Shown here piece by piece: positions 9,603 through 63,356 of a stretch of DNA of 64,000 nucleotides. Numbering within the stretch: the first letter of the stretch is position 1; every line of letters begins with the position of its first letter. The stretch comes from Pecten maximus (Eukaryota). The position numbers were made by a program, and so were the translations under genes. Below the pieces are notes generated by a model that saw only the letters and a list, made by a program, of their open reading frames with translations, searched no databases and had not been told where the DNA came from. Where the stretch lies: positions 37,386,001 through 37,450,000 of the forward strand of contig NC_047017.1 of assembly GCF_902652985.1 (NCBI RefSeq). Reading direction: 5' to 3'.

Positions 9603-11414
9603 ACTAGACTAGGCATTTGCACAATGCATTTTATTGTACTGCATATATAGCTCGAAACTTGAACTGACACTTTATATGAAGTGCATTGGCTGTTTCTTAT
9701 ATCAGGACAAAATATCTTTAAACAGGTTGAGTAATATCCCCCTGGAGTCTTATATATTGTTAAGTGTTACTTAGTATTTTATGTATAAGCTAAGCTTTTA
9801 TAGTTGCTTGTAAAGGTAGCATACCTTGGTTGGCTATTATGTAGCACAACAGTTTGGGTAACTTGCATCTAGAAAAATGTTCAGACAGTTAGGAAATGAG
9901 GATTCTACTACTGAGTAATAAGAATGGAGTTCAAAGAATTCACCACTCCTTATCAGTTAAATATTCTGTTAAGTATACCCCCTAATTCTCTCCTTGGTAG
10001 TCAATAGTCATATATTACAGTTTAGGAAGTTTTAGAATTGAGCAATCCTTGTAAAGTTGCAGAAAATTATCAAATACACAATTTACATGATGGATACTGT
10101 GCTTTACAATCAGGTAATGGGTCCTCAGAATCACCTTAATACCCTTTTTTGTGAAAACCTCTAGGCTAGTGAATGCATTACTCATCGGTGATATACCGGG
10201 TACATGTTCAATGTATAACGTACACTTAATATTGGAAAAAACTACTCTTTAGATTCAGTAAAGAGCACTGATGGAAATGTATTATAGATGTTACTTCTCT
10301 AATTATTTAACATTAACAATCATCAGCTTATTCACATATAGAAGTGAATTAGAATTGTAACATTTTGTTTCAGTATTGAGATCACTATCATTTGTATTGC
10401 TTACTATGAACATAAGTAAAATAGAGGATGGTGAGAATGTGTTCTTGTACACATTAGGTTAGAAGTCGAGTGCCAACAGCCATCAGTTGTAAGGATGTCT
10501 AGGATTGTGAGTAGTGCCCATGCATGTGTGACCTGAAATTGCAGTGTTATCTTCTGGATCATTATACGGTATGTGTTTTCATTTATTCCTACTGGTCATT
10601 CCAGTTAATTTCTGAAAAGCTTAATTCTGATTCATGTACAGGTTTTTTTACTCTCTGAAAACAAGAGGGTTTACAGGAATTACCTTGTGTTTTAATTTAT
10701 TCTTCAGCGACGCTTGTGAGAGTTACAAGAGTCCATTATGAAACTATTATTTCAGTATTAGTATGAAACTGATAAATCTATATACAAATGTATATTTAAA
10801 TTTGCTACAATTTATGCATGCACTGAGATCATGTTAATTTTACTACAGTGCTAATGTCCTGTTTTATAATATGCGACTTTAAATCAAATTTCTTGACTCT
10901 TGTTGGCTCTCTTGAAAGTATATATGTATTATACATATATTTGAGAAGATGATGTGCATGAAGAAAGGAAGGGATTTTTGGGAGTGATTATAGCCAATTA
11001 TGCTTTGTAATCTATATTAAAATACCATTCAGTTTTATTGCAACTTGATAGAGTGTGATTATGATAAATGATATGGCAAGTTCTGCTACAGTAAATATAG
11101 TTATTGCCATTGGTAACAGAGGAATATCGGTAATTGGGTCAGTCATTTGAAGATAATGTAAATAGTAAATTGATTGCCAATTTCTTTAGCTGAATCAAAA
11201 TATGTTTCATACATTGTTTCCATAAAACAAAAAGTAAAAACAAAAATAGTAAAAACATAGGATTGCTTTTTTCATGCTTGACAGGTAAATTGTTCACTCT
11301 TGGACCAATTAATTGGAAATTATTATGCACTAAGTCTTGAGCCTATTTGTAACTATTTTCTGGTTCCAATATCAATATGTCATTGCTACTGTAACAGGAG
11401 AGGAGAAAATGTAG

Positions 11415-11486
11415 CGGCCAGACCGGGGTTCGAACCCGGGACCTCCGAACACTAGCCGGATGCTCTACCAATTGAGCTACCTGGTC
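11415..11486 (-). tRNA. tRNA-Thr(AGT)-like sequence inside the TRIM 3' LTR (element-borne, not a standard tRNA locus)
   Basis: GACCAGG TA GCTC AATTGGTA GAGC A TCCGG CTAGTGT TCGGA GGTC CCGGG TTCGAAC CCCGG TCTGGCC G folds as a 72-nt cloverleaf with one acceptor-stem mismatch. A and B boxes are intact and TTTT lies 5 nt downstream. Confidence 0.7.
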
Positions 11487-11633
11487 ACCGGTGATCGACC
11501 CAGTCCAGTCCCGCTACACACCTCCCTCCTTTTTTTCAAGTCTTCACCCTCGAAGACACACGAGACCCTTATACCACCACCATGGGTATTTTAGTTGGGC
11601 GCCAATTTTGTAACAGGAGAGGAGAAAATGTAG

Positions 11634-11705
11634 CGGCCAGACCGGGGTTCGAACCCGGGACCTCCGAACACTAGCCGGATGCTTTACCAATTGAGCTACC
11701 TGGTC
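11634..11705 (-). tRNA. tRNA-Thr(AGT)-like sequence inside the TRIM 5' LTR
   Basis: Second copy of the same sequence; the single LTR difference weakens the D-stem (GAGC to AAGC). Confidence 0.62.
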
Positions 11706-12275
11706 ACCGGTGATCGACCCAGTCCAGTCCCGCTACACTACTATAAATAGCTTTGTATTTTATTAGTAACACATAGTTTGTTATGAATTTCTTTTTAGCC
11801 AGCATGTTTTATCCATGGTTATTCATTGTACATGTACACTCTACATAAAAATTTTATGCTGCTTCAAAATAACCACTGAATGGATTTCACATAGTTGCCA
11901 TGCAGATACTTCATTACAATCTGCATTGTCTAGTGTCAGAAGTGTATAGGTCCATAGCCTTCTTGTTTATAGATAGCTATAGAGAGCTTATTGTGTCACA
12001 AATATGCTTCCCTATACAAAATCAAGCTTCATAACTTAACTAAAGCATAAGTCAGAGGTACCAGAGGGCCTGTGTATTATTGGTTAAAATGTTTAGATCT
12101 GTTCTATTGTTAAGAAGTAACCAAATATGTGATGTAACTAGTTTCAGGCCCCATGATTCAAGTGACTTCTAAAGTACCAACATTGATCAAACATACATAA
12201 TTTCTCACAATTATTGAATTTACCCATTGTGTACAAAAATGCTTCCTTATAAAAATTGAAGCCACATCACCCCTT

Positions 12276-18200: not shown

Positions 18201-20299
18201 CTAAAGGTATTACAGACCTTGTATCATATTTGATAACTACAGGTCCAGTTACAAGTTCAGTCTGCAGAGAACAAGTATAAGTCCTTACTGGATTGTGTGT
18301 CCACAGTGAGAAAACAGAAACTGGTGAGTAAACCTTAACAAAATGGTTGATGACAAATCACTCCTCAGTATATGTAGAGGATGGATCTGTCCGAACTGAA
18401 CTGCAAAAAAAAAAAAAAAAAAATAATTGTGCAGTAAGTTTTTCAATAGAAATAATAATTTCCTGTCAAGTGCTGGTCTGAACCTCTGGTTATTTATTGA
18501 TAATTGATGATCCATGTTTCAGCTAGTCCAAACCTGTTAAAAGAAGTAAGTAATCGAAACAAATAACAAATTTGCATATTTCAGCTTCTGTGATGTTCCT
18601 GTCACAATTTTGAACTGTTCTATTTGCGTACTTTGATGCCATACTAGATTAGTAAGATATTATTTTCACATATTTTTCATAGTCCAAAGGGTTTTTTCGT
18701 GGATTATCCTGGCCCATGTTTTCTGCTGGAGTGATCAACTCGGTGTACTTCGGAGTGTACGGATATACACTGAAAGTACTTGGTGGAAATAAAGAAGAAA
18801 ACAGTACACCTCCATACCTCAAGATACTATTTGCTGGCTGCTTAGGAGGTGTGGTTCAGTTGATCCCAGCATGCCCAGCAGAAGTCATTAAGGTCGTTTT
18901 ACAGTCACAAATACCTCATGGCAACCTCCAAGGAGGTTAGTGTTCAATATATGCTGAATCATATTGAGAGGTATAATATTCTTGTATGTGGTATTAACAT
19001 GTGTGTTCCTTGTGACAAGACATTTCCATTAGTAGTATGTTTTGGACCTGCTGACCTAAAACACTTTATGACTATGTGTTAACTACGAGATAAGGCTTTC
19101 ATATTTGACATGTATGTTTTTGTGACAAGACCTTTCCATTGGTACTACATTTATACATTAATTGACCTGTAGATTTTACCGGGACCTTTGACCTACTTCT
19201 TAAAAATTGGTTCCGAATTTCAACCCACTCTGTGATCTATGTTGTCTTCTGACAATTATTGTGGTCTTTTCTATAGAATCGATTATAAAGAAATAATTCA
19301 AAATACAAATACACTGTATTGCTATATATCTTGAAATTCTTCAAATCTCTATTTCAAGCCATTCTTAAATGATCATTGCTGTTGATTTCAATTCAACAAT
19401 GCAAAATCAAAAACCAGACTATATTCCCGCATTGATGTTGATTTAAACAATAACTATTGTTACAAAGAGCAGGTATATATTCCATAATATCATATCTTAT
19501 TGGCTTAAACAATAACTGTATTATTACAAAGATCCGGTACATACTACATGTACATAATATCATATCTTATTGGCTTAAACAATAACTGTATTGTTACAAA
19601 GAGCAGATATATATTCCATAATATCATGCCTTTTTGGCTTAAACAATAACTGCATTGTTCCCAAGAACAGATATATATTACATAATATCATATCTTATCG
19701 GCTTAAACAATAACTGTATTGTTACAAAGAGCAGATATATATTACATACCGGTAGTATCATATCTTACCAACAACTTCATGATTACCATTATGCCAGTGT
19801 GCCATGCAAAAGAAATCTTCTCTTTTCCTTTATAGCCAAATTTTACAAGGGTCCTTTGGAAGGTGCTGCACACATCTTGAGACTACATGGTTTAAGGGGG
19901 ATGTATCGAGGTCTGCCCACTCAGTGTATCAGGGATGTTCCAGCTAACGGCATTTACTTCCTGACATTTGAGTTTCTAACCTTCAATGGATCAAGCAAGC
20001 TACCTTTTATACCTGCTGCTGTGCAAAATTTTTTCGCGGGTGGTATAGCTGGCGTTCTTAGTTGGATGGCGATTATACCGTTTGATGTGGTGAAAAGTCG
20101 CCTGCAAGCTGACTGTGATAGTAAGCGTTATAAAGGGTTTCTAGATTGTGCCTTGGCTTGCTACAGGCAGGACGGTTTATCAGTGTTTTTTCGGGGTCTC
20201 TCCATGGTGGCTTTGAGAGCATTTCCAGTTAATGCTGTTACATTCATGGTTTATGTTGAAAGTATGAAACTTCTTGGAGAGGAAGTTAGTTATGCTTAA
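15278..20299 (+). CDS. Mitochondrial solute carrier, SLC25A45/47/48/29-like (298 aa)
   Basis: Exons 15278-15332, 17215-17258, 18243-18323, 18683-18935, 19836-20299 total 897 nt with consistent phases. Three carrier signatures PFDTVK, PAEVIK, PFDVVK plus GFFRGL / GMYRGL / VFFRGL and RAFPVNAVTF. Possible 5'UTR exons 10374-10568 and 13676-13730 (low confidence). Confidence 0.92.
15884..17045 (+). repeat. Intronic minisatellite: 25-bp unit grading into related 24/26-bp units
   Basis: GTAAACTCTAATACCTCAGCTACAG x~25 (15884-~16505), a degenerate zone, then GTAAACTCTTAATCTATCTGCCACAG and CTAAACTCTTAATCTCTGCCACAG to 17045. Confidence 0.95.
17490..18242 (+). repeat. 36-bp minisatellite abutting SLC25 exon 3
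   Basis: GTATTACAGACCTTGTATCATATTTGATAACTACAG x~20; the last unit ends at the exon acceptor AG (18241-18242). Confidence 0.95.
19440..19770 (+). repeat. ~60-bp degenerate minisatellite (about 5 copies)
   Basis: Recurrent TTAAACAATAACTGTATTGTTACAAAGAGCAG...CATAATATCATATCTTATTGGC. Confidence 0.85.
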
Positions 20300-20498: not shown

Positions 20499-21430
20499 TT
20501 TTTAGGTCCCCTCAGACAAAGTTTCAAGAGACCTATTCTAATCGCCTTTTGTCTGTCGTCCTTCGTGCGTCCGTAAACAATTTACATTTTCGACTTCTTC
20601 TCCAAAACCGCTCAATCACATTCAATGAAATTTGGCAGGAAGCTTTTATGGCTAAAGGTCAACCAAAATTGTGAATTATATGGTCCCCACCCCCCAGGGG
20701 TCTGAGGAGTGGGGTCAAAAAGGGTCAAATTGACTAAACCTTCAAAAATCTTCTCTACTCTAAGATATGGTGGAATCAAACACTCTTCATAGATGGAAGG
20801 GTCTTAATTAAGGTGCTTTACCAAAACAGTGAATTTCATGACCCTGGGGTCACACGTTTGCCCCTAGGGAGGGGGTAACTTTACTATAGTTTATATAGGG
20901 AAATCACATTTTTGACTATCATTTGTTTGATTTCTATCAGTATTTATTCGAATTTGGTTCAAATTATCAGCATAGGATGACAGTTTGATGGTATGTATAT
21001 GTTGGCCCTGGTTGACCTCCAGGGGCTGATGGGCGGAGCCAAAAATGGTCAAATTAACTAAAATTTTAAAAATCTTCTTCTTACAACCCAAATAAGCTAG
21101 AATCAAATACTCTTCATAGATGGAAGAGTCTTAAGGTGCTTTACCGAAATTGTAAATTTTATGACCCTGGGGTCTCATGTTTGCCCCTGGGGAGGGGGTA
21201 AACTTTACTATAGTTTATACAAGGAAATCACATTTTTGACTACCTGGGTATCTTTTGTTTGATTTCTATTGGAATTCATTCTAACTTTTTTAACATTATC
21301 AGCATGGGATGACAGCTTAATGGTATGCATATTTTGGCCCTGACTGACCCTTTAGACTGATGAGTGGGGCCAAAAAGGATCATTTAAATTAACTGAAATA
21401 TTTCGAAACTCAGGTGCCTGTCGAGGCGTA
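20499..21430 (+). mobile_element. Helentron/HINE-type element (same family as 33254-34505, opposite orientation)
   Basis: TTTTTAGGTC...GACCTATTCTAATCGCCTTTTGTCTGTCGTC start and an internal ~320-bp duplicated block; reverse-complement match to 33254-34505 along its length. Confidence 0.8.
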
Positions 21431-27489: not shown

Positions 27490-30400
27490 TCAGTACTCCA
27501 ACCATTCCTTCATGTAAACACAGTTTGTTGGTGACACTGGACCTCCCTCACAGCACTGGTCAAATACCTGAAGAGGATAGAGTAGATATTGCGTAATAGT
27601 ACCAGGTATATGCATATTAAATAGGAAGGATTTCCTCTTAAATCTTTATCTGTAAGAGGTATATATCAAAAGGCAATAATTAAAATCCAGTAAAGGATGT
27701 AAAACTATTTTACTTTTGAGCATAGACATAATGGATAATAAATGTATTATCTGTATGACTAAAGTTTCCTTTCTAAAAACCATAAAATCTTCACATACAG
27801 GACATGATCCACAAGGCATCCTCATGAGTCCAGTGGTAGGTACAAGAGGTTTCATTGCACGGTATAGCTTGGAACTGGCCTCTCCTGAACTGGTGGATGC
27901 GGTCACTGATCGCTCTACTTTCCCGTCGTATATAAGGGTGTCCATGATAGTCTCAATATCGTCCACAGACAGCTGAACCTGAATTTAGTAAACTAACCCA
28001 ATGAGCCAACGGTCCCGTAATCATTCTATTTAAGTGAAGTACATTAACTTGTCAGTAATAAACACTTGTATAAACTGCAGGCAGTTCTACACCAATGTCA
28101 ACAATACTATTTCAATCCTTTTTACTTATGAAAGTTAACACTATACATCAGTTTGTGTTGGCTTATTAAAGGTTATTATGGTAATGAAACAGTTTATTAA
28201 TGAACCTGTAAACATACTACCTTTACATATTTGTTGTTGCAAAGTGTTTAAATGAAAATCAACAATCTTTTACTCTGTTAAATAATTTTGGCTTAAAGCA
28301 AAATAATACATCAATGGAATTGTGGGGATTCTGAGGTAGAGTAAGTCGTATCATGTTACCTGGTGTTGGGCTCTTTAGGAACTGTAATCATATAAACATG
28401 AATACATTTTCTGGTTTTTAGACCTTCCTATGATGTATGAACACCTGTTTGTCCTCTATCGATTGATTTAAAGGCACATCATCATGCATATTGGTAGCAT
28501 CGAGTCAAACAAAAGTGCATTCACTCTTCTGTACAATCTTTACCTTACTGATTCCCAGTTCTGAAATGTACTTCCACACATCTGATAATGAGGTAAAGGC
28601 CGCATTCCTCTGTGCTATGGGATCAACCTGGTTCTCCCTTGCAAGGCTAGCCTGAAACAAAGGTTGATGAAGATACATGATTGCCTGGCACACAGTGCCA
28701 AATTAAAAGATAAATCTATTAACTTGTTTTACATTTTTATCTGCGTTTTGCCTATGGCTTGGATATCGATAAAGTATTTACTGTCCGACATCCTCAAGTA
28801 ATGACTTTAAGTGATGTGAAATGCATCAAAAGGGTAAAGATTTGTAAATGATCTAAATGTGCTGCTACTGTTTAAACAATCTAACCAATTAGCCCATTAT
28901 TGTATATGCAGAGGGAAAGATTGATGCGATATTTCACTTTATCTGTGACCTTCAAAAATTACCACCTACCTGTTGGTACTAATGTGTAAATGTTTAATAT
29001 ACCATATGCAACTTGAAGCAGCTTGAACACAAGACTAGGACAAATCATAATGATACATTACTATAAGAAAAGGGTGGATCTGAACTGATATAGACCATAC
29101 CTTTTGCTCCAGATACTTGAAGCATTGCTGATTGAGAACCTCTACAAATTCTGACTCAAAATCTTGGTCACTGTACCATGCTCCTCCAGTCACTGTCCGA
29201 TCAGGCTCCAAATTGTACAGCATGTAGACCTTTTTCTTGGAGGCCTATCAGACAGGACAATTCATCAAAAGTAACACATTCAGTAAGCATATATCACTAA
29301 TCAAAAGTAACACATTCAGTAAGCATATATCACTAATCAAAAGTAACACATTCAGTAAGCATATATCACTAATCAAAAGTAACACATTCAGTAAGCATAT
29401 ATCACTAATCAAAAGTAACACATTCAGTAAGCATATATCACTAATCAAAAGTAACACATTCAGTAAGCATGTATCACTAAACTGTCTTTATTGGAGGTTG
29501 TCAACTTGTCATGGTGAAACCACATATAACTCTCCCAAGAATTTCTCAAATACTTACTCTTTGATAAAAGTAATCAAACCTTTTAGAAATAAATCCATTT
29601 CTCAATCGTTAGCAACAGCTTGTTAGATATACTGAGATTATTAAATTCAATGGTTAATTATAGTCAGTCCCACTTAAAATATCCAGAAAGTTTTCACAAT
29701 TCTACCCTTGTTGACAAGCGAACATTGGAAAATTCAAATAAATAGCTAAAACAAATTATGCTAACTATATAAAACTTACTTATTATGCGAAACAATGCAT
29801 ACTTACTGCGACAGACTTAACAGCTTTGATTAATTTCTTGCTCTCTAAGTTTTTCAGTATCTTGTTGACTTGAGTTAACAGCAGGTTACACTTGTATCGG
29901 ATGTCCCTTATCCATATGCCTATGTAGAAACATTTCAGATTATTACTGTTATAGTACCCAACAAATGCTGAAGAGATGGAATTCTTAACTGTGACTACCT
30001 GTACTAATGCTGAAGAAAGATTACAGCAATGCCAGGGAAATCTTAGCTGTGACTGTACCTGTACTAATGCTGAAGAGATGGAATTCTTAACTGTGACTAC
30101 CTGTACTAATGCTGAAGAAAGATTACAGCAATCCCAGAGAATTCTTAGCTGTGACTTTACCCGTACCAATGCTGAAGAGAGATTACAGCAATCCCAGAGA
30201 ATTCTTAGCTGTGACTTTACCTGTACCATTGCTGAAGAGATATTACAGCAATCCCAGAGAATTCTTAGCTGTGACTTTACCCGTACCAATGCTGAAGAGA
30301 GATTACAGCAATCCCAGAGAATTCTTAGCTGTGATCGTACCCGTACCAAAGCTGAAGAGATATTACAGCAATCCCAGAGAATTCTTAGCTGTGACTTTAC

Positions 30401-33400
30401 CCGTACCATTGCTGAAAAGACAGTACAGCAATCCCAGAGAATTCTTAGCTGTGACTTTACCCGTACCATTGCTGAAAAGACAGTACAGCAATCCCAGAGA
30501 ATTCTTAGCCGTGACTGTACCCGTACCAATGCTGAAGGGATAGTACGGCAATCCCAGGGAATTCTTAGCTGTAACTGTACCCGTACCAATGCTGAAGAGA
30601 TATTACAGCAATCCCAGGGAAGATATTTTCCATGTGTGTTGACGATGTGATATATTTTCTATTTGTACTAACAATGTGATATATTTTCTATTTGTACTAA
30701 CAATGTGATATTTTTTCTATGTGTATTGACAGTGTGATATATTTTTCTGTGTAAAATTGCCCAATAATGCTCCAGACTACATTTCATCAAAATCCGTTAA
30801 AGTATTCAGGACTAGTATGAATTTAAAGGAAATGTTGATGTAATGCGGACGACAGACGCTGCACCATGGCACAAGCTCACCGGCCCTTCGGACCAGGTGA
30901 GCTAAAAATGGATGAACACAGGAAACTGATACACAAACTCCTTTTCAGATTAGTTGTGAGCAGGTCTTGAAGCTTCAAGTTTTAACGGTTTAACCTGCTT
31001 GGTTCACCGTTGTCCTACTCTCCAGGGTTCCTGCGTAAGATCGTCGTTGGTCCTACTTCGCCACTAGTGTATAAAAGAACCAAACAACTACTGCGATTTG
31101 ATGATATTTATTCCCAGACATTGGTTACATGAGACATCAACAGAGAGAAGTGCGAGCATTATGTGGGCACCCGGTGATACATATTCTGCGCCGGCGTAAC
31201 ATGAAGTTAATAGATGGTAGTTGGCACACTCGGTGGCGTGAGGATGTCCGACTGTTGGCCCGGCGTACCTGGCGACAACCCGTGCCCGCCTACCTACACC
31301 CCAGCCAGCATCTCACCCGCCACAGTCCACTGGCCACCTCACTACACTGAGTGCTCTTTATAGATCTCGTGTGCTCTCACCTGTTGACCGATCGTCGCGG
31401 CTACAGGTGTCTAAGAGTATATATAGCCCCGAGCCCACATAATACGTCGCAATCCTTTACATGTAACAATACATATAGTACGCACTCAATACAAATACAG
31501 GTAAATATATACAATACATGTGCAACAAATACACGATCATTACACTACCCCCGCCTCAAAAGCGTTGGTCGTCCCGACCAATATAACAAAAATGATAGTT
31601 AACAAATTCAAAAATATGTTCATACAGTTCAAGTACCTTTCTTACTAACTCTTTTCCGTACAGCACACAAATAAACACAAAGTTCTCACTCCCCAGAATC
31701 ATTCTCAGCTTACAACACACACACATACTCACTCACAAGGCATAGTCAATAACTAATATAGATACGAAAAACATTTATACTTATATATACACAAATACAA
31801 TTATACACAGAACTATACAAATCAACATGAATGCATAACGCTTAGATATATCCCCCTGCCTTATTGGTGGACGTCCCGTCCAACCAAACAGGAATGAAAA
31901 CATGTCCATTACCCTAAAGTCTTTTTCCAATTCAAGAATTCCCGCGTCCCGCGATTAGCTCGTCCCGCGTGCTGGCCGGTCCCGCAATTTCACTTTTAAT
32001 GTCCTGGCATTACTCACACTCCTCCCACTCAATAACGTGGCACGACCGCGTCACCGTTGTTTCCCCATCTGGTCCAGTGGTTGTCCTTATTGTGCTTTCC
32101 TCCTGGCGATGCCGCTTGACTCTCATGATGTCACACTGAACAGACACATCGATGGCATCAACGTGTCGCTCCTTCCCTCCGCTCTCCTCATCCTTTGCCT
32201 CATCCACCAATTTCTGAGGTTCCGCTGCCCGCTTAACTGGTGTGGAATGCCGCAAAGGTGATACGACATTGGCATTCACAATAAAAGTCCTCATAGATAT
32301 GTCGGGATCTGCCCCGTTGGACAGTTCCTCTGCTTCCTCAGCATTCCCTGGCACCACAGAAACAGCAGCTGCATTGTTCGCCGTGGCCGTGATCGTGGTA
32401 GGTGGCGTAGCCTTCATTGCCTTCACTGCCTTCACTGGTGTGACAGTCGTGGTTGCACTTGTCACTGCCGATGTCGAAGAGGACGAGCGCCGTTTCTTAG
32501 GCGGGGTATGGTCGAGGGCCTTGGACGGATGTTGCCGTTCTATATGGCGCCGCAAATCCCCTTTCCTGGACAGGGTCTGTTCACAATACTCACAGGAGAC
32601 TCTTTTGCTAATGTCCCCTGTGTCTCCCCGGCTCCTGTCCTCCCTAACGGATGGTTCTACCCAGAGTCCTCTCTTTGCTCGTTCACATCCCACGATGTGT
32701 TGCTGTAACAATGCCATGCTGTCAAGATACCTCCCACATGCCATGCATCGGAACGAGTCCGCCGTTCGTGAAGAATATCTGGAGTAGGACATTTCTGTAA
32801 AATAGACAAAAAGGATGTATTAGACCCCCATCCAAAATTGTCATTTGACTACTACATTTCAAATTCCTCAAATCGGCACTGTAACATTTGTGTTCGCGTC
32901 GGTCTGTGATGATCACCGTGTGCCCACATATTATCAATATCTAAACCGCTCTCTTCGCTGTAATCTTCTTGGTGATCTTCTACGATGCTGTCTTCCTCTC
33001 TGTTAAAACCGCCGTGCCGTACCTTCTGTGGTTTTATACAGTCACTATGCACCACTTGTTTCCGTCCCCCGGCAACAGGCTGTACCTCGTACGTCACATC
33101 TGAGATCACGCTTGTGATGGTATACAGCCCGTGCCAAAACGTAGTTAGCTTGGGGCTTGTGCCGACCTTAACCGTAGGGAAGTATAACTTGACAACGCCT
33201 TTTGGTTTGAGTTTTTGACAGTTTGCACGGGTATCGTGATAACGTGATTTCATAACAAGAAGCCCATGGGCCTTAACGGTCACCTGAGATTTGAAATATT
33301 TCAGTAAATTTAATTGACACTTTTTCGCCTGACCCATCAGTCTAAGGGATCAGTCAGGGCCAACATTTGCATACCATTAAGCAGTCATCCCATGCTGATA

Positions 33401-36400
33401 ATGTTAACAAATTTAGAATGAATTTCAAAACAAATAAAACAAATTATAGTCAAAAATGTGATTTCCCTATAACTATAGTAAAGTTTATCCCTTCCCATGG
33501 GGCAAATGTGAGACCCCAGGGCCAGGAAATTCACAATTATGGTAATGTACCCTAAGACCCTTCTATCTATGAAGAGTATTTAATTCTACCTTATTTGGGT
33601 TGTAAGAAGATTTTTAAAATTTCAGTTAATTTGACCCTTTCTGGCCCCGCCTATCAGCCCCTGGAGGTCAGTCAGGGCCAACATGTACATACCATTAAAC
33701 TGTAATCCCAAGCTGATAATTTGAACCAAATTAGAATGAATTCCAATAGAAATACAACAAAAAAAAGTCAAAAATGTGATTTCCCTATATAAACTATAGA
33801 AAAGTTTACCACCTCCCCAGGGGCAAACGTGAGACCCCAGGGTCATGAAATTCACAATTTTGCTAAAGCACCTTCAGACCCTGCTATCTATAAAGAGTAT
33901 TTGATTCTACCATATCTGAGAGTAGAGAAGAAGATTTTTGAAATTTCAGTCAATTTGACTCTTTTTGGCCCCGCCCATCAGCCCCTGGGGGTCAACCAGG
34001 GCCAACATGTGCATACCATCAAACTGTCATCCCATGCTGATAATTTAAACCAAGTTAGAATGAATTCCAACAGAAATCCAACAAATAATAGTCAAAAATG
34101 TGATTTCCCTATATAAACTATAGTAAAGTTTACCCCCTCCCCAGGGGCAAATGTGAGACCCCAGGGTCAAGAAATTCACAATTTTGGTAAAGCACCTTAA
34201 GACCCTTCCATCTACGAAGAGTGTTTGATTCCACCTTATCTGAGAGTAGAGAAAAAGATTTTTTAAATTTTAGTCAATTTGACCCTTTTTGACCCCGCCT
34301 TTCAGGCCCCTGGGGGATGGGGACCATATAATTCACAATTTTAGTTGACCTTTAGCCATAGAAACTCCCTGCCAAATTTCAATGAATTTGGTTCTGTGGT
34401 TTTGGAGAAGAAGTTGAAAATTTAAATTGTTTACGGATGGACGACGCACGACGACGGACAAAAGGCGATTAGAATAGGTCACTTGAGTCTCAGGTGACCT
34501 AAAAACCCTGACATACTTATACGCCTACTCCATGGCTGTTTGCGTGTCCTCCACCCATTGACTTGTACTTCTCCATTCCTCATCAGGTGTTCTTCCCACC
34601 ATTATATCTATCGGCATTGATAGCTCTCGACCCAGCATGAGGAAGTTCGGTGTATAGTTTGTTGTTTCATGCAGAGACAACCTGTACTCCATAAGAAGGT
34701 ATGGTATATGGTGGTTCCAGTCAGTCTGGTTATTGCTCACGAATGATCTGAGCATCTCCTTCAGTGTTCGATTGAAGCGCTCAACCATGCCATCACTTTG
34801 AGGGGGATATGATGTAGTTCTCGTCTTCTGTATTGCGAGCATCCTACACATTTCAGTAAACAAAACGCTCTCAAACTGTCGTCCTTGGTCTGAATGAAGG
34901 GATGACGGCGTTCCGAATCTTGTTACTATTTCTTCTTTCAAGATGGTAGCGATCGTAGAAGTTTCCTGATTCGGCATCGCGAACACCTCTGTCCACTTAG
35001 TGAAGTAGTCAGATACCACTAAAATGTACTGATTTCCACTTTCAGTTCTCGGTAGCGGTCCTGTTGTGTCAATGGCGATTCGCTCCATTGGCATTCTGCT
35101 CTGCAGAACTTGCATTGGAGCACTTCTCGCATCCAATGATCCATTGGGGCACATCTTTCTGCAGACCATGCTAATAGTAGTGTTGACGTACTTTCTTTAA
35201 GCATTTCCTAATGCCCAGATGTCCCCCAGTGCGGCTGTCGTGTGTTTGAGTCAATACCATGACTCACATTTTCCTAGGCACCAGAACTTGCCATGACGCT
35301 TTCCTCTCCGTTGTATCGTTCCATTTCCTGACAATGACTCCATCCCGAAACTGGAACCGCTCAAATTGTGCCCAGAGAGATTTTAGCTCACATCCGCTAA
35401 AATACACCTCTTTGCAATCAGGATGCTTGCCCTATCAGATCCACTCGCCCAGAAGTTCTTTAATAAGCAACTGTGAATCCACCTCCGTGTTTACGACACG
35501 AACATGGCTCCATCCAGTTTTGCCGGAAGTCTTTTCGACACAGTGATCACAGAGAACTCTACTCAATCCATCTGCGCTTCCGTGATCTTTCCTTGGCCGA
35601 TGCTGAATTTCAAATTCATACGTTGACAATGTCTCACTCCAACATGCGGTTTGACCTTCGGGGCCTTTCTTCTGCATCAGCCATCGCAGTGCGGTCTGTC
35701 CGGATAAGGAAGCTTTTCCCTGTAAGATAGTGCCGGAAATAATGTACAAAGTACAAGACAGCTAGAAGCTCCTTCTTGGTCACACAAGAACGCTTTTCGA
35801 ATTTCAAAAGCGTTCTATTTCCATAACATATTGGCCGTTCTTTGCCGTCCTGTACTTGTGAAACCACAGCGCCGATGCTCATGTCGCATGCGTCAGTATC
35901 CAAAATGAATGGTAGGTCAAAATTTGGATGTGCCAATATCGGTGCCGATGTAAGCTTTGTCTTCAGTTGATCGAATGCTGTCTGGTAATGTGGTGTCCAT
36001 ACAAATGGCTGTTCTTTGCAGTAAGAGGTTGTGCTATCCGCAAGAAATTTTGTATAAATTTTCGGTAATACCCACACAACCCCAAAAATGACCTGACTTG
36101 GGCGACTTTTTGAGGTATCAGCCATTCTTGTACTGCTTTTGTCTTCTCAGGATCAGTGGCAACTCCATCTTCAGAGATAATGTGTCCCAAGAATGATACT
36201 TCTTTAGCGAAAAGGGTACACTTTCGGGGTTTCAGCTTCAGACCCACTTCGCTAACTAGTGTTGGGTAATCGGTTGAACACGGCAACCGATGATCGGTTG
36301 TAATCGGATGATCTCGGTAACCGATTATACAATTATAATCGGTTGTTATTTATCAGTCTGTTTGAAATTAAAAATGCAAACAAAATTGAGCCAGAGGCAA

Positions 36401-39400
36401 CTGGCACTTACTTATTCATTTGCTATTTATATCTATGGGACAAAGAATGTATAATGCCATTAAAACATCCTATTGAAATTAAAAATTAACAAACGAGTGA
36501 TTATAAAACTTGACAAGAAAATACACACATGATTGCAGCTTGTAAGTTAACACTTATTATCATTTAATGTTTTGTTTTGTTTAGATGTAACATACTGCGT
36601 GTATTTACATTTAAATAAATATGTTTCAGTAATATCATGGTTCCCCGAGTTACGAGTATCAACTAGACAACTACATTGCCTCAATGATTTTTCAATACTG
36701 AAGGGCTTAAAGATTAGAGCCAAAGAGGCCCAACTCATGTGAATAAAGAATATTGAATAGTAACTGAATAGTGTCTTAAACAATATAATTAGTTAACAAT
36801 TAGAATAAAAATTCTGATGGCATTATATGTATATAAACATAGGGACCCGATTGATCGATTATACAAAACATGATCGATGATTGTAATCGGTAGACAATAA
36901 TCAACCGTTAATCGATCATTCCCGATCATCGACACATCACTACCGCTAACCGCCCAAAAACACTGTCTAGGTTCTTGAAAGTACGGAAAGTACTCCTCGA
37001 AAGTACGGCCATGGACGATAATGTCATCGAGGTAGATTAAGCATACTCCCATTGGAGTCCAGATAGCACGGTCTCCATTAGACGCTCAAATGTTGCCGGC
37101 GCGTTGCAAAGACCAAAGGGTAAAACATTGAACTGGAACAGACCTTTTCGTGTAACAAACGCCGTCTTGGATTTATCAGCCGGATCCATTGCAATCTGCC
37201 AGTAACCAGAGGAAAGGTCTAATGTTGAAAACCATTTTGCCCCGCCAAGTTTGTCCAAAGAATCGTTAATATGTGGCAATGGATACGCATCCTTGATGGT
37301 GGCGTTATTCAATTGCCGGTAGTCAATGCAGAAGCATAGACTACCATCCTTCTTGCGTACTAGGACGATTCCCGATGCCCATGGACTGGATGATGGTTCA
37401 ATTATCCCCCTTTTCAGCATTTTTCCACGTGCTTGTCAGCTTCCTGAAGCGAATGATGAGGCAATCATCGTGGCGGCTGTTTAATCGGCGTCTTGTCTCC
37501 AGTGTCGCATGAGTTACTTGTCGTAATAGCATGTCTTACCACATCAGTAACAAGCTCAAATTGACCAATCGCCGTACCTTTGTACAACACCTGTGCCTCG
37601 TCCGCTGGATTCAGTAATCTGACTACAATAGCATTCCCAGTTTTTCCCTTCCTTGAGAGAGGTTCTACCAATCCAAATCCGTGACCAGCTTCTTCGCCGA
37701 GATGCTGCAGCAATGACTACCTCACTGCGCGGAGGAATTGTGATTGTCTCCCTAACATGAACTCGAGAACATCCAAACCGCCCTGTCAACCGACAGGCTA
37801 TTACCTCGTCTCCCATGGTAAGTTCTTTCTTATTCAAGTCTATGTGACAGTTTTGTTGGTACAAAAAGTCAAGCCCTAAAATGCCACCAGTCGTAATATC
37901 AGAGACAATAGCCCTGACTGTAAAGTTCTCCTGCCCATGGACAACATAAACTCCGCCTTGCCAAGTGAGCGAATGATCTCGCCATTAGCAGCTATGACGT
38001 CCTTCTTAATAAGCTCTAGGTTAGGTCGCTTCGCCGGCGAAATGCTATGAAATAAACCGATTGACAATAACGTTACTGTTGCACCAGTGTCAACAAGCAA
38101 CTCCGCATGAGCCCCGTTTAGTGTTGTCGAGATATAAACGCCAGCCTCGACTAGTTCATATCCTGTCCCCATATTCGAATATGCCGGGCTGTTTTCTGGA
38201 GAGTTGCGTCGGAAATGTCCTTCCTTGCCACATTTAAAGCATTTATCGTCCCTTGGTCGGCTCCTTCTAGTTCTTGATTCCTGGAGTTTGTCTATCTCCG
38301 ATTTCATGTCGGCCATCATTTTCTGCAAATCTTTGAGTGCGTTGACGTATCGTCCCCAATTGGCAATTCACTTACTGCATCCGCAGTTCTGGCATAACCT
38401 CTGAAATCGGACCAGAACCTTTCCGCTTTCTCGAACGCCTCCAATTCTACAGCTGTTCTCACCGCGTCATTAAGAGTACTAGGTCGACTTTGTTGTACGC
38501 GTAGGCGTATATCCGAACAAGTCAGCACATCTATGAAAGAATCTTTCGCAAGAACCTCCCATAACTCTGGTGTAGCGCCTGGATATATGCCAGTTGTGTT
38601 AATCTTAAAATTCCCTGCCCTCTTTAACTGCGAGCGATACAATTCCGTCTGGTTAGCTGGGGAAAATCGTTGCTGCAGCGCGGCTGCCAATATACCGAAA
38701 TCAGCCTTCTCATGAGCCGGAAGATTACTTAATACGCCTTGCGCCAACCCCCTTAAATTTACTGCGAGATGCATACCCTTCTCACTGTAGGACCAATTGT
38801 TTAAAGAAGCGCACATTTCAAAATGTGTCCTGTAATCAATCCAGGATGTTAAACCGTCATATGTTGCTGGCTTAACTTTCGTGCTTGATTGGGCTTGTTG
38901 CTTCAATGGCAAGATTTGTCTTGTATCCACATCAGGGATGACGTTCCTTATTACGCTACTGTCGATTCATTCCTAACGCCATTGTAGTATCCGTTTCATC
39001 ACCGGGCGTACTAGTCAACCATTTTTCTTCAATGAAATTGTCTCCTTGTCGCCCTGTTTGGCCTCTCCTTTGCTCAGTCATCAACCGAGAATCTATTAGT
39101 GAAATCTTTCGGCGTTGTCTAACACCTGCTGACACCACCTCAAGTCTTGGTGCTAAATCCTCCAATACACCTCCTGTGTACATTGCCTCCAGTGTCTGAT
39201 ATTCCAATTTCCTCTCTAGTTTACATTTACGATACCCTGGCTGTGTCTTTGGCCTTGCTCCACCATAAGGATCAAACTCCTTTGGTTGTTGACTCATAGG
39301 TGTCGGTAGTGCCGGAGACGCCCGATGCGCCGGCAATCCCTGCAATGATGTAGACGCCTGGTGTGATGGACACAGTAGTCGTGCGGCGATAGTTATAACG

Positions 39401-42400
39401 CCGGTGATGCCTCTTGCTCCAGCGCCGGATTGCTTCTGTCCGTCATATTCATATGGTCAATCTCCACCTGCAGCTTTTCTATTGTTATATACAATTCTTC
39501 CAGTTTTGACGCCATGTTTACACAGTATACTGCTGCCATCAATTTTGTAACGGTTTAACCTGCTTGGTTCACCGTTGTCCTACTCTCCAAGGTTCCTGTG
39601 TAAGATCGTCGTTGGTGCTACTTCGCCGCTAGTGTATAAAACAACCAAACAACTATTGTGATTTGATGATATTTATTCCCAGACATTGGTTGCATGAGAC
39701 ATCAACAGAGAGAAGTGCGAGCATTATGCTACAATTTTCTACCTTACGGGGACTTTGTCTCCACCTCCCATATCAAATGGGGAAAAAATTAAGTTGATAC
39801 AGTTAGTGTTACTAGACCAGGTTTTGTACACTTTTAACTATGCATTGTGAGACCTCTGTATCCCCTAGACAACTCATCTTTAAAGAATACCGATTAGAGA
39901 TTACACATTTATTCACTTTAACGTTTATAGATTACCTTTGTTGCTAGCATCCTTTATTATCTGATAGACTAACTTCTCTTGGTTGTCCCCTCCTTTTGCT
40001 TGGCTGAAATAAAAAGGCTGAAAATTAATACCTGTTTTGGAAACATGTTAATCTCGACTAAAATCAGGGTCCAACAAGTAGACTTCAAAACATTATGTTC
40101 TGAAAGGAAATGTGGCCCAGCAGGTAACACTGATCTCATTCCTGGGTAAATATTCTCTATGCAAAAAACGTCCTTTTAAAATATTTTATGAGCAAATATA
40201 ACTTACTGAGAAGCTGTTTATGATAACATACAAAGTATTTAAATACCAACACTTTTAAGTTTGTGTAATATATTTTATAATATCTTAGCTGAACAGATAA
40301 AAAATGTCCTTTTAGCAATAGCAACAATCGGTCTATTAGGCATCCATCCTCTATAGAACCTAGTACAGTACCAAGCTACATCTCCAGACTTTCATTATCT
40401 GAACTACTGTAGTGTCCCCCACATAATTAACTTACCAGCTTTTATGCAAACATCAGTATAACCAAATAAACTGATTCACTGATTGGTTTGGTTATGGTGT
40501 GTTTAATGCATATGGATTGCAATATGCATATCATAAATGATTATCAACTGTACATTAATTATATGAATCCTCCTTCCACTTTAAGGTTACAATCTCTCTT
40601 GTAAAACAATGTAGCCTAGTGCCAGTATCATAATTGGTCCAGTAACTTACTAGTACAGAATCTCACCACATAAGACTATATTTCCTTTTTAAAACACTGG
40701 GACAGAGGAATATTCAGCCTTAATGAAAGGAGTTAAAAAACCTACTAAGATGCCACAAACACCACATGTAATTAAATTCTCAAATGGTTTATTACCTGGC
40801 AGCATCTGGATCTTTCAATTTATACACCAGGTTAGATCCTCGCTTCAGCAGGTCAACTTTTCCCTGCACACAAAGATAAAGCATTGATACCATTTCAGTC
40901 CCAGATGTACATTCTATATGTGTTATATAACAGGTTATTTGAAATCAATTTTCCCACGTATGGCTACATTAGAAACACTCACAATCACAGTAAAAGGAAT
41001 ATTACTGCAGTAAGAAAAAACAAATTAGAAAATTGGTGCATATGCATAATGTTGGTGTTTGAAAACTACATCAGTGAATACAAAATGTATTTCAAAATGT
41101 TCAGATGAAAATTTTAAGAAGAATTGTCCATACATGATTCATAATTGCCATCAAAATTAGCGGATCCAGCAAAATATGTCAAGGTGCAGAAATGTTTGGG
41201 ATGACTACATTCACAGATTTTCACTAAGTTTTGATGAAAACTATAGGAGTTGTCCAGACAAAAATCTTACCACAGACATATGGACAGACTGACAGAGAAC
41301 CTGAATCCAACATACTCACTTACTTTGTTGCGGGCGGTATAAATATCGGGTATAAGAAGTAACAAATGGTCACAGTTTAAAGAGAGCACTCCCATATGAC
41401 TACCATAACCAATGACAATTTTATATCACACATACCGTTGACAGAAGTCTATTGATGGCAGTGACTCGTTGCTTGGCATTACACTGTGGGAACTCCTGTT
41501 GTATAATTGCATCTGTTATCCCATCTGTATATGTCTGACAAAGCTCAATGAATCTAGATAATGAAGAAGACAAATCTAAACATTAATGGTTATATGCAGC
41601 TTCTTTTTGGAAATCAAAATTGGCGAAGATATGAAATAATTATATATTACAAAATAAGAATAGTTTGTTATTGATGAGGCCCAATATCAGGTATCTGGAC
41701 CTCTTGGTTATTAAGTTGTTTACATATGTTGAAAAGTTGATATCGAACAGGTGCAGGTGCACCAGGGCTTTAAAAACTCCACCAGTGTAGACAATGATGG
41801 GCATGCATATTCACTGGCAAGTTACTTGTTGATGTGGCAAATGGTAGCATAAAAAAAAAACCTGGCAAACTAAAGTGTGGCCGACGCTGTCGCTGATGAA
41901 GACACCACTGATAAAGTGATCCCTTAATAACAACCTTGGTTCAGAGGTGTCACAAATCTTTTAGCAAATCTAGCAGTACAGATGATTTGTTTTAATAGGC
42001 ACCGACTTTAATTAAAACTTTGATCTGATTTGATACAGGGCTGATACAGTCTTCATGAGTAACCAGGGGCCTGTTTGTTCATGCAGACAAACTGGTTTGC
42101 AAATTTTAAGTAGTAACATTTCCAGGTTGGGGAAACCACAAACTTGCCTAGCCTATTAGATGATAATTGAGGTATAGCTATATAAACTTTAGGGAAATGT
42201 TCATCCAAGTCATATTTATTTAGTCATGAAACAACATAAAAATGCAAAAATAACATTTATTTGCAGTTAAGAAAGTACTACTCAAACAATGTTAGAGGAT
42301 AACATGGCGAGAAACTTATGACAGGTGCTGTGTAACCTCTGACTTCCCAAGGCGGAGTTACCCTGCGCAGAATGTCAAATTTTCAAAGTCAGGATTTTGA

Positions 42401-60544: not shown

Positions 60545-63356
60545 ATGGATCATTCTGACCGTCCACTTTTCAACAATCTACTCAAGTTGTGTGACACTGA
60601 AGATGATACTTCAGTTAGAAAGGTGTCAAGGAGATCGAAGGAGAACAGTACTGATGGATCTTATTGTACTTCCTGTGCGAGACTGTGGAGGGACAGCAGG
60701 TACTACAATTGGGGTTCCCTGTACACACGCTCCTCCTTGTGTGCCGAGTGTCAGGAAGGGCGAGATGGGCAAGACTACATCAGTTACTGGGGAAGCTCCA
60801 AATACCGAGCAGGATCCTGGAGACTGCGACAAAAATGGATGAATCCAGATTTTGGATGGATGTTTACAAGTCGGACTGAAGCACAGAATTTAAATACTGA
60901 CACATCAAGGTCAGAAACAATTACAGAACGGTCATGGTCACAGGAATTTACTGCTAGGTCATATGAATCACTCTCAAGGTCAGAATTAAGTGCAAGGTCA
61001 CAGGAGTTAACACCAAGGTCACAGCAATGTCTATTTATAGCAAATAACACCACAAAATCAAATTCTGCCACTGATTATACCAGTCAGATCAAACAAGATG
61101 AAGACTATGATAGTGTTAACTTTTCTATGGATTCTACCCAGTCAAGATTCAGTTCTTCAAAATTTCCACAAGAAAGACATTCTAGGAGCAAGAGTCCATG
61201 TTTGCAAAAAGTTGATATAGCATCCAGGAAACAAATCTTTGAAGGATTAAGTGATGATAAATGTCAATCAGGTAAGATGACTTCTCCTGACTGCAGCAAG
61301 TATGAACCTGATCCAGTAAGAACAGACATTCCCAAGCTCGACCTGTCCAACTTGGAGGATACTCCTTACAATAGTCCTGTTTACCACTTTCCACTGACAC
61401 CAAAACACATACCAACTATAGCGAAGCCTAACCGCTGGGTGGGATAGTAAGTATTGTCAGGTCTTCACTCACAACTGTATTTATCCTCCAATAAGCCCCC
61501 TCCCCTAGTGTAAAAGTTTTGTACCATATTTATCCTCAAATAAACTCCCTTTGTAAGTGTAAAAGTTTAGTACTGTATTTGTCCTCCAGTAAGCCCCCTC
61601 CCCTAGTGTAAAAGTTTTGTACCATATTTGTCCTCAAATAAGCTCCCTCCGCAAGTGTAAAAGTTTAGTACTGTAATTATATTCAAATAAGCTCTCCTCC
61701 CATTGTGTTGAAGTTTTGTACCATATTCATCCTGAAATAAGCTCCTGTCCGACAGGCAAGTGCAAAAGTTTAGTATTAAAATTTGAGGAGGGCGTACTTG
61801 TGACCCCCTTTTGTGATGATTCTACAAAAATGAACAGGGCTTTATTGTGGATAAATATGGTAAGTATCATTACATGAAGTATCAGTATACTGAAATGGGA
61901 ATGGATATGGGATTCCTTAGCATATGATATTGATGCAATTATGTAGCACTGAAGTAATGTATACTAATTAAAAAAAAAACATCAACACCTTGACCTTTCT
62001 GCCACAGCATCATTTGAAGAGACAGTAGTTTACCTAGATTAACCAGGACTGATGTTCAGTCTCTATAGCTTTCAAAAATTCAAAAAGCTTATTCCTTGTC
62101 ATTGATGAACAGCTGCATTAATTAGCTGTTAGGTATACATACATATTGACGTCGCATGGAAAAGTTTCATTGCTGATCAAATGATAGATAAGTCAAAAAC
62201 GTCAAAGGCCAAGATCACATATAAATGACATCTTCTTACTGAGATTTTAAAACATTCAATCGTTAATCTTTACTAGGATACCAACCGTGAAAAAAAGAAC
62301 AATGAGGAGTTTATCATGTAATTTTTTCTCAAGTGGCTACTTCGTGGGTACTGCAGAGCTGACCAGTGACACTGGACATCTACTGTGGGTTCGTCCACGT
62401 GGTGACCTTCAAGTCATCTTCAAATACGCCAACACTGGACAGGATTTCAAGTAAGATAAACAATGTAACATTTGTAGTAGAGTTACTTATTCTCCATTGT
62501 TAAAAGTACACATACCCTTGAAGTTGTGTTATGAGACTCGCAATAAAACTTATTCTGACCCGTGTTAAGAAAAAAATGGGTTGCTAAAAAAAGTAATTGA
62601 TAGATTCTCAAGTACATGATGTGAAATGTAGAAAGATATATATGAGACACAACGGTTCAAAATCAAAATATCTAAGATTAAAAAAAACAAACTTTTTTTA
62701 ATAAAACTACTTTCAATTGTAGCCTTCAGTATACCACAACCTCAAACTTTGTCTTTTGACAATATTAAATTTGTACTGCTTCATCTAAAATTGAACTTAA
62801 GTGAATCCTAAAGTCAGTAAATATCTATTACCATAGTAACAGTTTGACATACAGCATACATATATTTATATAATATACATTTGTATATGTCTTTGGCCTT
62901 TGAAAAACAGGTGAAGAAAAAGCAAAGTTCATAATCATTGACATAATTTTTGGAGCCTCAGGGTATGATTTGTGATACAGTTAATTTATTCAATCAGTGG
63001 GGAGGGAGATATAAGCAGACATACCCAATATGTTGCCTTCAGTACATAAAGATATATTTATGTAGTTGCCATTTTCTCAATGTATTTTCAGGTGTTTTGT
63101 CGATCCTCAGTATACTGGTGTCAAACTTTGCCAAAGGAAGCCAGATGGAGAGCTCACAGTCATTCTTGATGGAAAAGAAAGTCCACAACATAGCAACAGT
63201 TGCTACCATGTGCAGTCTGTCACTCGGTATCCGCCCCAAAACAACTTCAAACTGGTGTCCTATCTCGGCCGGATAGAGTTGATACTCCAGGCTGTCAAAA
63301 ATGATACTTTGCCAAACCCTCAGAGATTTAAGATCAATTTTACAATGACTTTGTGA
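60545..63356 (+). CDS. Uncharacterised protein: large Ser/Arg-rich first exon plus a C-terminal meteorin-N/CUB-like domain (exon joining uncertain)
   Basis: 300-codon ORF from ATG 60545 to TAG 61447. Exons 62277-62450 and 63092-63356 have good splice sites and join in frame (...GQDFK|CFVDPQY...FTMTL*). The link between the first ORF and exon 62277 is unresolved. Confidence 0.55.
61475..61860. mobile_element. MITE whose left TIR is tandemly amplified (~49-bp units x6)
   Basis: Left CTGTATTTATCCTCCAATAAGCCCC; right GGGCTTTATTGTGGATAAATATGG followed by TA; each internal unit starts with the TIR sequence. Confidence 0.65.

Follow-up and report, generated by a model that had tools for sequence, protein, structure and literature searches.

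Long-terminal-repeat (LTR) retrotransposons without env are usually treated as carrying nothing beyond gag and pol. Studies of accessory genes are few, but those made, as on CERV and on sORF2—a further published extra gene (bioRxiv 2025.03.14.642691)—have altered the view of the life cycles of these elements. We analyzed a 64,000-nucleotide stretch of the scallop Pecten maximus (contig NC_047017.1, forward-strand positions 37,386,001 to 37,450,000), which whole stretch is referred to here as the window and supplies all coordinates, and found within it a copy of a Ty3/Gypsy element bearing, between pol and the 3′ LTR, a third open reading frame (ORF3) that encodes two zinc fingers. We read ORF3 as a genuine accessory gene of its Ty3/Gypsy family, being neither an env gene nor a chance reading frame; very probably its product is an element-encoded accessory protein of the nucleus, translated from a spliced RNA.

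Foamy viruses, which as Retroviridae with env and an internal promoter are unlike the present element, carry in Tas/Bel1 a 3′ accessory gene for a nuclear trans-activator; no sequence relation was found. The likeness lies in such a 3′ gene and in the position of the major splice donor, in R and upstream of the poly(A) signal (PMC3694450). The CERV protein of the Caenorhabditis elegans element Cer1 is, as ORF3 would be, an extra nuclear protein from a spliced element mRNA, with a predicted oligomeric state and a Cys-based metal site; but CERV is large, with three structured domains and a demonstrated part in genomic-RNA export, whereas ORF3 comprises 260 amino acids (aa), is predicted to be mostly disordered, and combines one finger of the classical C2H2 class with one of the C2HC class and an LC8-type motif—a distinction drawn from the description of CERV and not from its sequence (PMC10309623). 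The env gene of errantiviruses and retroviruses occupies the same slot between pol and the 3′ LTR, on the same strand and with an acceptor just upstream (PMC13524379); unlike env, ORF3 would place in that slot a nuclear-type protein instead of a fusogen. In bdelloid rotifers the third-ORF slot likewise holds a nonenvelope gene, typically with a spliced message, although those ORF3s are GDSL esterases, DEDDy exonucleases, and coiled-coil or membrane proteins, and the words "zinc" and "finger" occur nowhere in the main text of that report (PMC5408684). Maize Grande gene23, in turn, occupies as an accessory gene the interval from pol to the 3′ LTR, and its nuclear protein has a proposed regulatory role; gene23, however, is antisense with its own promoter, whereas ORF3 lies in sense orientation, would seem to be expressed by splicing from the LTR, and is endowed with recognizable fingers (PMC7264820).

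A zinc-finger ORF3 in a Gypsy element was not found in the literature as covered by titles and the beginnings of abstracts, which scope leaves Repbase, Dfam, and the subscription journals outside. The term "zinc" occurs in none of four mollusc and annelid surveys (PMC6238403, PMC8556966, PMC10294476, PMC8220671), nor in PMC13524379 or bioRxiv 2025.03.14.642691, and denotes only the Gag knuckle in PMC12440569; the part of PMC13269885 consulted holds nothing relevant to such a gene. A first-pass annotation of the window, made from the letters alone, had implied less precedent for a nuclear gene in the env slot than there is; CERV, Grande gene23, and the rotifer ORF3s precede it in that respect, and what stands is that no zinc-finger ORF3 was encountered. 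The family may already be annotated in repeat databases, or have been described previously.

ORF3 reads on the minus strand from 32792 to 32010, beginning 60 nt downstream from the stop of the pol frame (the integrase C-terminal frame, ending at 32852) and ending some 450 nt before the polypurine tract (PPT, 31557–31545). Its parts are the following, P0001 and P0019 being the two relatives described below:

32010–32792, minus: ORF3, an intact zinc-finger accessory gene of 260 aa (list of open reading frames, Pfam, shuffles)
32685–32747, minus: finger 1, C2HC, C16/C19/H32/C36, aa 16–36 (motif, AlphaFold, structure search)
32529–32594, minus: finger 2, classical C2H2, C67/C70/H83/H88, aa 67–88 (Pfam, motif)
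32487–32504, minus: PPKKRR basic motif, a candidate nuclear localization signal, aa 97–102 (motif; KKRR retained in P0001)
32130–32150, minus: DVSVQCD, a candidate LC8/DYNLL-type motif, aa 215–221 (motif, P0019 alignment, LC8 tables)
32016–32120, minus: a predicted long C-terminal beta-hairpin, aa 225–259 (AlphaFold)

The protein has, in addition, an Ala/Thr/Ser linker. In location, strand, and length the reading frame is as the first-pass annotation had given it, and the two fingers, the basic motif, the linker, and DVSVQCD of that annotation were all confirmed. Shuffling the ORF3 DNA 2000 times produced not one stop-free run of at least 260 codons, the longest being 216. Finger 2 has the C-x2-C-x12-H-x3-5-H spacing of the classical C2H2 class and matches Pfam zf-C2H2 (E 7.4e-6, 26.6 bits against a cut-off of 25.2), both above the cut-off, and ORF3 also matches zf-C2H2_4 above its cut-off (E 1e-6); besides zinc-finger families, Pfam returned two weak unrelated matches on ORF3. 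An env-like nature of ORF3 was considered and rejected, inasmuch as the protein has neither a signal peptide nor a transmembrane segment—as had been claimed from the letters—nor any N-glycosylation sequon, and no hydrophobic segment, the highest 19-residue Kyte–Doolittle mean being 0.66. Because this test for env fails, the element is not an errantivirus, but a member of Ty3/Gypsy.

The closest relative, P0001 (RefSeq XP_033761528.1, "uncharacterized protein LOC117343293," Pecten maximus), is a gene model that fuses a reverse-transcriptase (RT) piece of the same Gypsy family to the second half of ORF3, to which sequence it is 84% identical over 162 columns. P0001 reads through the RT where the window copy is broken and has frame breaks of its own, in the RT and near the basic motif; because its breaks differ from those of the window, P0001 is an independent copy in which ORF3 lies downstream from the RT on the same strand. 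XP_033761528.1 looks like a model stitched from a decayed element copy, partly out of frame, and not like a host gene, and the comparison indicates that ORF3 belongs to the element family. A HMMER search over 1.84 billion representatives gave 123 hits, among which, besides P0001, only P0019 (288 aa; 30% identity, E 9e-19) covers nearly the whole of ORF3 in a single stretch. The part following the fingers scores 110 between P0019 and ORF3, whereas none of 2000 shuffles exceeded 73; the best such score among the other 121 hits is 55, inside the shuffle range, and those 121 of the 123 appear to match ORF3 through the zinc fingers only (11 hits were inspected in full). Conservation in P0019 extends to finger 1, to finger 2 in its recognition helix, and to the motifs G-x-D-P-D-x-S and D-x-x-V-Q-C, the latter followed by R-V-K-x-H-x-x-E-E-x-T-x-R-T. 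ORF3 would then appear to be old and conserved, on the evidence of the single sequence P0019, which need not derive from a retrotransposon and could itself have decayed. With a two-sequence profile, 7998 candidates were scored and no relatives besides P0019 and P0001 emerged, and none of 3699 candidates for longer fused forms of ORF3 passed, which result is weak evidence.

So few relatives, one of which might be a host gene on a contig devoid of context, would suit a neutral passenger—that is, a captured fragment of a host gene or a separate insertion. We nevertheless hold this to be quite improbable: host proteins match the fingers only, as the scores beyond the fingers indicate; the second copy, P0001, links ORF3 to the RT; conservation motif by motif at 30% identity would imply long selection; and the splice layout described below has a purpose-built appearance. 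A separate later insertion was rejected in view of the flanks, where no duplication longer than a 7-nt T-rich word surrounds ORF3.

The Pfam domains of the element follow the order zf-CCHC, Asp_protease_2, RVT_1, RT_RNaseH_2, Integrase_H2C2, rve, and Integrase_p58_C; and by its order of gag, protease (PR), RT, RNase H, and integrase (IN), together with its LTRs, primer-binding site, and PPT, the element belongs to Ty3/Gypsy (Metaviridae), of which group named mollusc clades include MolGy1–16, Mag, Cigr, and Tor2 (PMC6238403). The published tRNA-Leu-type primer-binding site with which that of the element is compared below comes from the PMC13524379 supplement. The window copy consists of:

32852–39515, minus: broken gag-pol with gag, CCHC knuckle, PR, RT, RNase H, and IN (H2C2, rve, p58_C) (Pfam, three-frame translation)
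36257–36942, unstranded: nested noncoding insertion in the RT, about 690 bp, with TAGTG/CACTA ends and a 7–8 bp target duplication, which we take to be hAT-MITE-like
33254–34505, unstranded: nested noncoding insertion in the IN, with internal repeats of about 324 bp, presumably Helentron/HINE-like by its ends
31545–32009, minus: 3′ untranslated region (UTR) with five CGGGAC copies (31984, 31967, 31951, 31878, 31576) and the PPT at 31557–31545 (motif scan)
30981–31544, minus: complete 3′ LTR of about 564 bp, with TATA at 31425–31418, donor GT at 31380, and AATAAA at 31112–31107
39546–39728, minus: remnant of the 5′ LTR, its last 183 bp or so, with TATA and donor lost (LTR alignment)
39530–39541, minus: primer-binding site (2 mismatches to the published site of tRNA-Leu type)

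The two LTRs agree at 94.7% over 190 nt, with 8 of 180 core positions differing, and the 5′ LTR has lost its outer end, next to which one copy of a 4–6 bp target-site duplication would lie. Over its 4716 nt the gag-pol region is interrupted by stops or switches of frame at least 15 times, which figure is a mechanical lower bound, and shows about 19 breaks as counted by eye in the three-frame translation. The window copy is a dead fossil; and this decay—the gag-pol breaks, the two nested insertions, and the missing 5′ promoter—was absent from the first-pass annotation. A second copy of the IN insertion lies at about 20500–21430 in the opposite orientation, some 85–90% alike, and Rfam gave no match over 29500–41000.

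Immediately upstream from ORF3 stands the signal on which a spliced message would depend:

32794–32812, minus: splice acceptor with polypyrimidine tract, the exon beginning at 32794 (YAG ranking)

This acceptor, 2 nt before the ORF3 ATG, had been called strong from the letters alone, and it does rank first of the 242 YAG sites in the element: its 14 pyrimidines out of 16 are equaled by two sites inside a nested insertion, of which both have a lower T count. The accompanying proposal of a subgenomic RNA stands insofar as a matching LTR donor exists, and fails for the window copy, which lacks a promoter of its own. The top donor among the 514 GT sites of the element is the LTR GT at 31380, located 45 nt past the LTR TATA box and 270 nt before the AATAAA, with a donor-matrix score of 6.6 versus 2.4–4.6 for four donors of the host gene RPC6, in which the element resides. 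A scan of the leader found no ATG between the LTR TATA and the donor, and a splice from the LTR donor to 32794 in a full-length element would accordingly make the ORF3 AUG the first of the mRNA. In foamy viruses, U1 binding at the donor in R suppresses 5′ polyadenylation (PMC3694450). Because the 5′ TATA and donor of the window copy are lost, that copy is unable to express ORF3 from its own promoter. The earlier idea of a nuclear accessory regulator is thus tempered on this same count, while being favored by the family gene in P0001, the conservation in P0019, the lack of env-like features, and the presence of the donor.

As to what the protein might bind, finger 2 displays the base-contact set R-1/D+3/R+6 in both ORF3 and P0019, which set is present in only 23 of 1205 other fingers of the hit set and which we take to read GCG by the Zif268 code; from this set we infer that finger 2 may show sequence-specific DNA binding. 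Finger 1, for its part, is probably a protein-contact finger because its base-contact positions are not conserved, and bears a weak likeness (Z 2.9 or less) to CCHC fingers of the protein-contact kind or to fingers that bind ubiquitin. The hexamer CGGGAC occurs five times in the 465-nt 3′ UTR and is absent from gag-pol, ORF3, and the LTR; three of the copies are 16–17 nt apart, directly after the ORF3 stop. With the repeats lying inside transcribed sequence, one may ask if they form a response element through which ORF3, made from spliced RNA, would bind the unspliced genomic RNA and export it in the manner of Rev or CERV: strong splice sites imply a need to export unspliced RNA, and in Cer1 the spliced, nuclear, oligomeric, Cys-loop protein CERV is needed for such export (PMC10309623). 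That function seems to us unlikely, in that the signature on finger 2 is of the classical DNA-reading kind, the repeat region folds as RNA no better than shuffled sequence (z 0.18, with 111 of 200 shuffles folding equally well), and CERV, large and with three structured domains, is unlike the predicted layout of ORF3.

That layout, according to AlphaFold, consists of finger 1 and the long C-terminal hairpin with disorder between them, although the model of the whole protein is poor—at a predicted local distance difference test (pLDDT) of 42.7 and a predicted template-modeling score of 0.20—with finger 2 lacking a confident fold. The hairpin folded alone reached a per-block pLDDT of 81–96. Foldseek of the ORF3 models against PDB and BFVD gave nothing at E ≤ 0.001; the top VIA-align Z values, which were 2.9 when the whole model was used and 2.6 with the hairpin, name no fold and exclude none; and in the ESM Atlas the whole ORF3 led to generic C2H2 clusters and aa 150–260 to nothing usable.

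The pLDDT is low around DVSVQCD, which places the motif within the predicted disorder; and an 8-residue, Gln-anchored motif in such a region is what the sequence definition of LC8 partners calls for. The earlier suggestion that this site binds LC8/DYNLL gains weight as a prediction: IDVSVQCD has the same D-x-x-V-Q-C register as gephyrin EDKGVQCE, which peptide is tabulated along with Ana2 STTGTQCD as an LC8 binder (PMC6607443 supplement), and fits the published LC8 preferences at positions -4, -3, -1, 0, and +2, the favorable residues being the two Asp, at -4 and +2, and the large one at -3 (PMC6607443). The D-x-x-V-Q-C core is kept in P0019, and when ORF3 was shuffled 20000 times, 0.16% of the products contained a motif of the LC8 class; neither VQC nor TQC appears in the main text of PMC5746249. 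An LC8 motif and a hairpin might also belong to an adaptor for targeting or anti-silencing, whose fingers would bind host chromatin or DNA while the other two recruited integrase or host factors, or titrated LC8 from a silencing complex; finger 1 resembles the protein-contact fingers mentioned above, and LC8 dimerizes the Drosophila PICTS silencing complex (PMC7861614). The structural matches, however, fall below significance. PICTS, moreover, is known from flies, and to our knowledge is lacking in molluscs, so that we see such an adaptor as distinctly unlikely.

Our preferred account is that of a multimerizing regulator with a single DNA-binding finger, acting on the transcription or chromatin of its own element, which function we propose tentatively, at somewhat less than even odds. 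In an intact element the transcript would start after the LTR TATA, and the donor in R would be spliced to the acceptor behind pol. PPKKRR would carry the protein into the nucleus, where self-association through the C-terminal hairpin, aided by LC8 at DVSVQCD, could allow the single classical finger to read GCG-type sites, the CGGGAC repeats just upstream from the 3′ LTR being candidates. The outcome might be control of the element's own transcription or chromatin, comparable to that exerted by the trans-activator of a complex retrovirus. A broader version appears doubtful, though worth stating: that a marine-invertebrate Gypsy lineage is organized like a complex retrovirus minus env, the splice from R to the third gene yielding the element's own transcription factor, LC8 and the beta-hairpin conferring multivalency, and binding to the repeats either activating the element or shielding it from silencing.

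Several points weigh against this account. The specificity afforded by one finger spans only about 3 bp. The CGGGAC repeats, noticed post hoc, are only a lead as candidate targets; their excess is modest, five copies of some GC-rich hexamer being reached in 6 of 300 shuffles, and, lying outside the LTR, they would not flank the 5′ promoter. The splice from the LTR donor to ORF3 is a prediction from its sites. Word-index searches and the full HMMER search recovered but two relatives of ORF3; of these, P0019 is without some of the zinc ligands of finger 2 and sits on a 1441-nt contig that provides no genomic context. Finally, both TQC peptides in the main table of PMC6607443 are nonbinders. If the account were nonetheless true, the env slot would hold a conserved nuclear protein with zinc fingers, which would represent a new type of accessory gene and might amount to an animal LTR retrotransposon encoding its own transcription factor; and the model offers testable predictions, namely a single splice junction, a single LC8 site, and a single candidate target on DNA.

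The location of the element within a host gene, likewise absent from the first-pass annotation, raises a separate question:

29920–39935, minus: phase-1 intron of POLR3F/RPC6, about 10 kb, holding the Gypsy copy in sense (Pfam exons)

The POLR3F/RPC6 exons span 29101–40863 on the minus strand and match Pfam Rpc34 positions 79–99 (weakly, E 0.024), 101–137, and 139–184, those flanking the intron being 40003–39936 and 29919–29807. The insertion, in sense orientation with a strong acceptor and a poly(A) signal, is a potential gene trap: splicing of the host donor at 39935 to the ORF3 acceptor would preserve the frame, which acceptor is more pyrimidine-rich than the next one of RPC6 itself, and an RPC6–ORF3 fusion transcript with its end at the LTR poly(A) signal may be formed. 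Co-option by the host would go further, in supposing that the exon ending at 39936 is spliced to ORF3 and that the resulting fusion of the RPC6 N-terminus to the zinc fingers, polyadenylated in the 3′ LTR, is under selection; in keeping with this, ORF3 is intact despite the breaks in gag-pol, although this is no more than mildly unexpected: at the rate of damage in gag-pol, 783 nt would stay unbroken with a probability of 0.083 for 15 breaks, 0.043 for 19, and 0.031 for 21, and the simulated chance of ORF3 remaining intact is 0.056. ORF3, however, was picked for study for being intact, which choice bears on those probabilities; the frame match has a one-in-three chance; and truncation of RPC6 should be harmful. 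When changes between the window and P0001 were polarized with P0019, 4 were assigned to the window and 3 to the broken P0001, with 15 left unpolarized, and because of this split extra constraint on the window ORF3 is not indicated. We therefore deem co-option very improbable, and survival of the window ORF3 by luck most likely. A 60-bp array in the same RPC6 intron yields spurious long reading frames in three frames.

Elsewhere in the window, minisatellite arrays with units of 21–60 bp occur at 29960–30700 and at 15.8–17.0, 17.5–18.3, 21.4–22.2, 29.2–29.5, and 49.2–50.5 kb, and further features are:

11390–11737, minus: tiny nonautonomous LTR element with two LTRs of about 129 bp, primer-binding site, PPT, and an apparent 4-bp duplication
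11414–11486 and 11633–11705: a tRNA-Thr(AGT)-like gene in each of those LTRs (ARAGORN)
19901–20299, plus: mitochondrial carrier (SLC25) exon (Pfam Mito_carr, E 5.8e-29)
60545–61447, plus: Ser-rich reading frame of 300 aa, unmatched in Pfam at E 0.1 and probably a large exon of the host

By its sequence features the first of these fits Helenus, elements with a tRNA in the LTRs and, in animals, a 4-bp target-site duplication, which occur in bivalves (PMC10886601).

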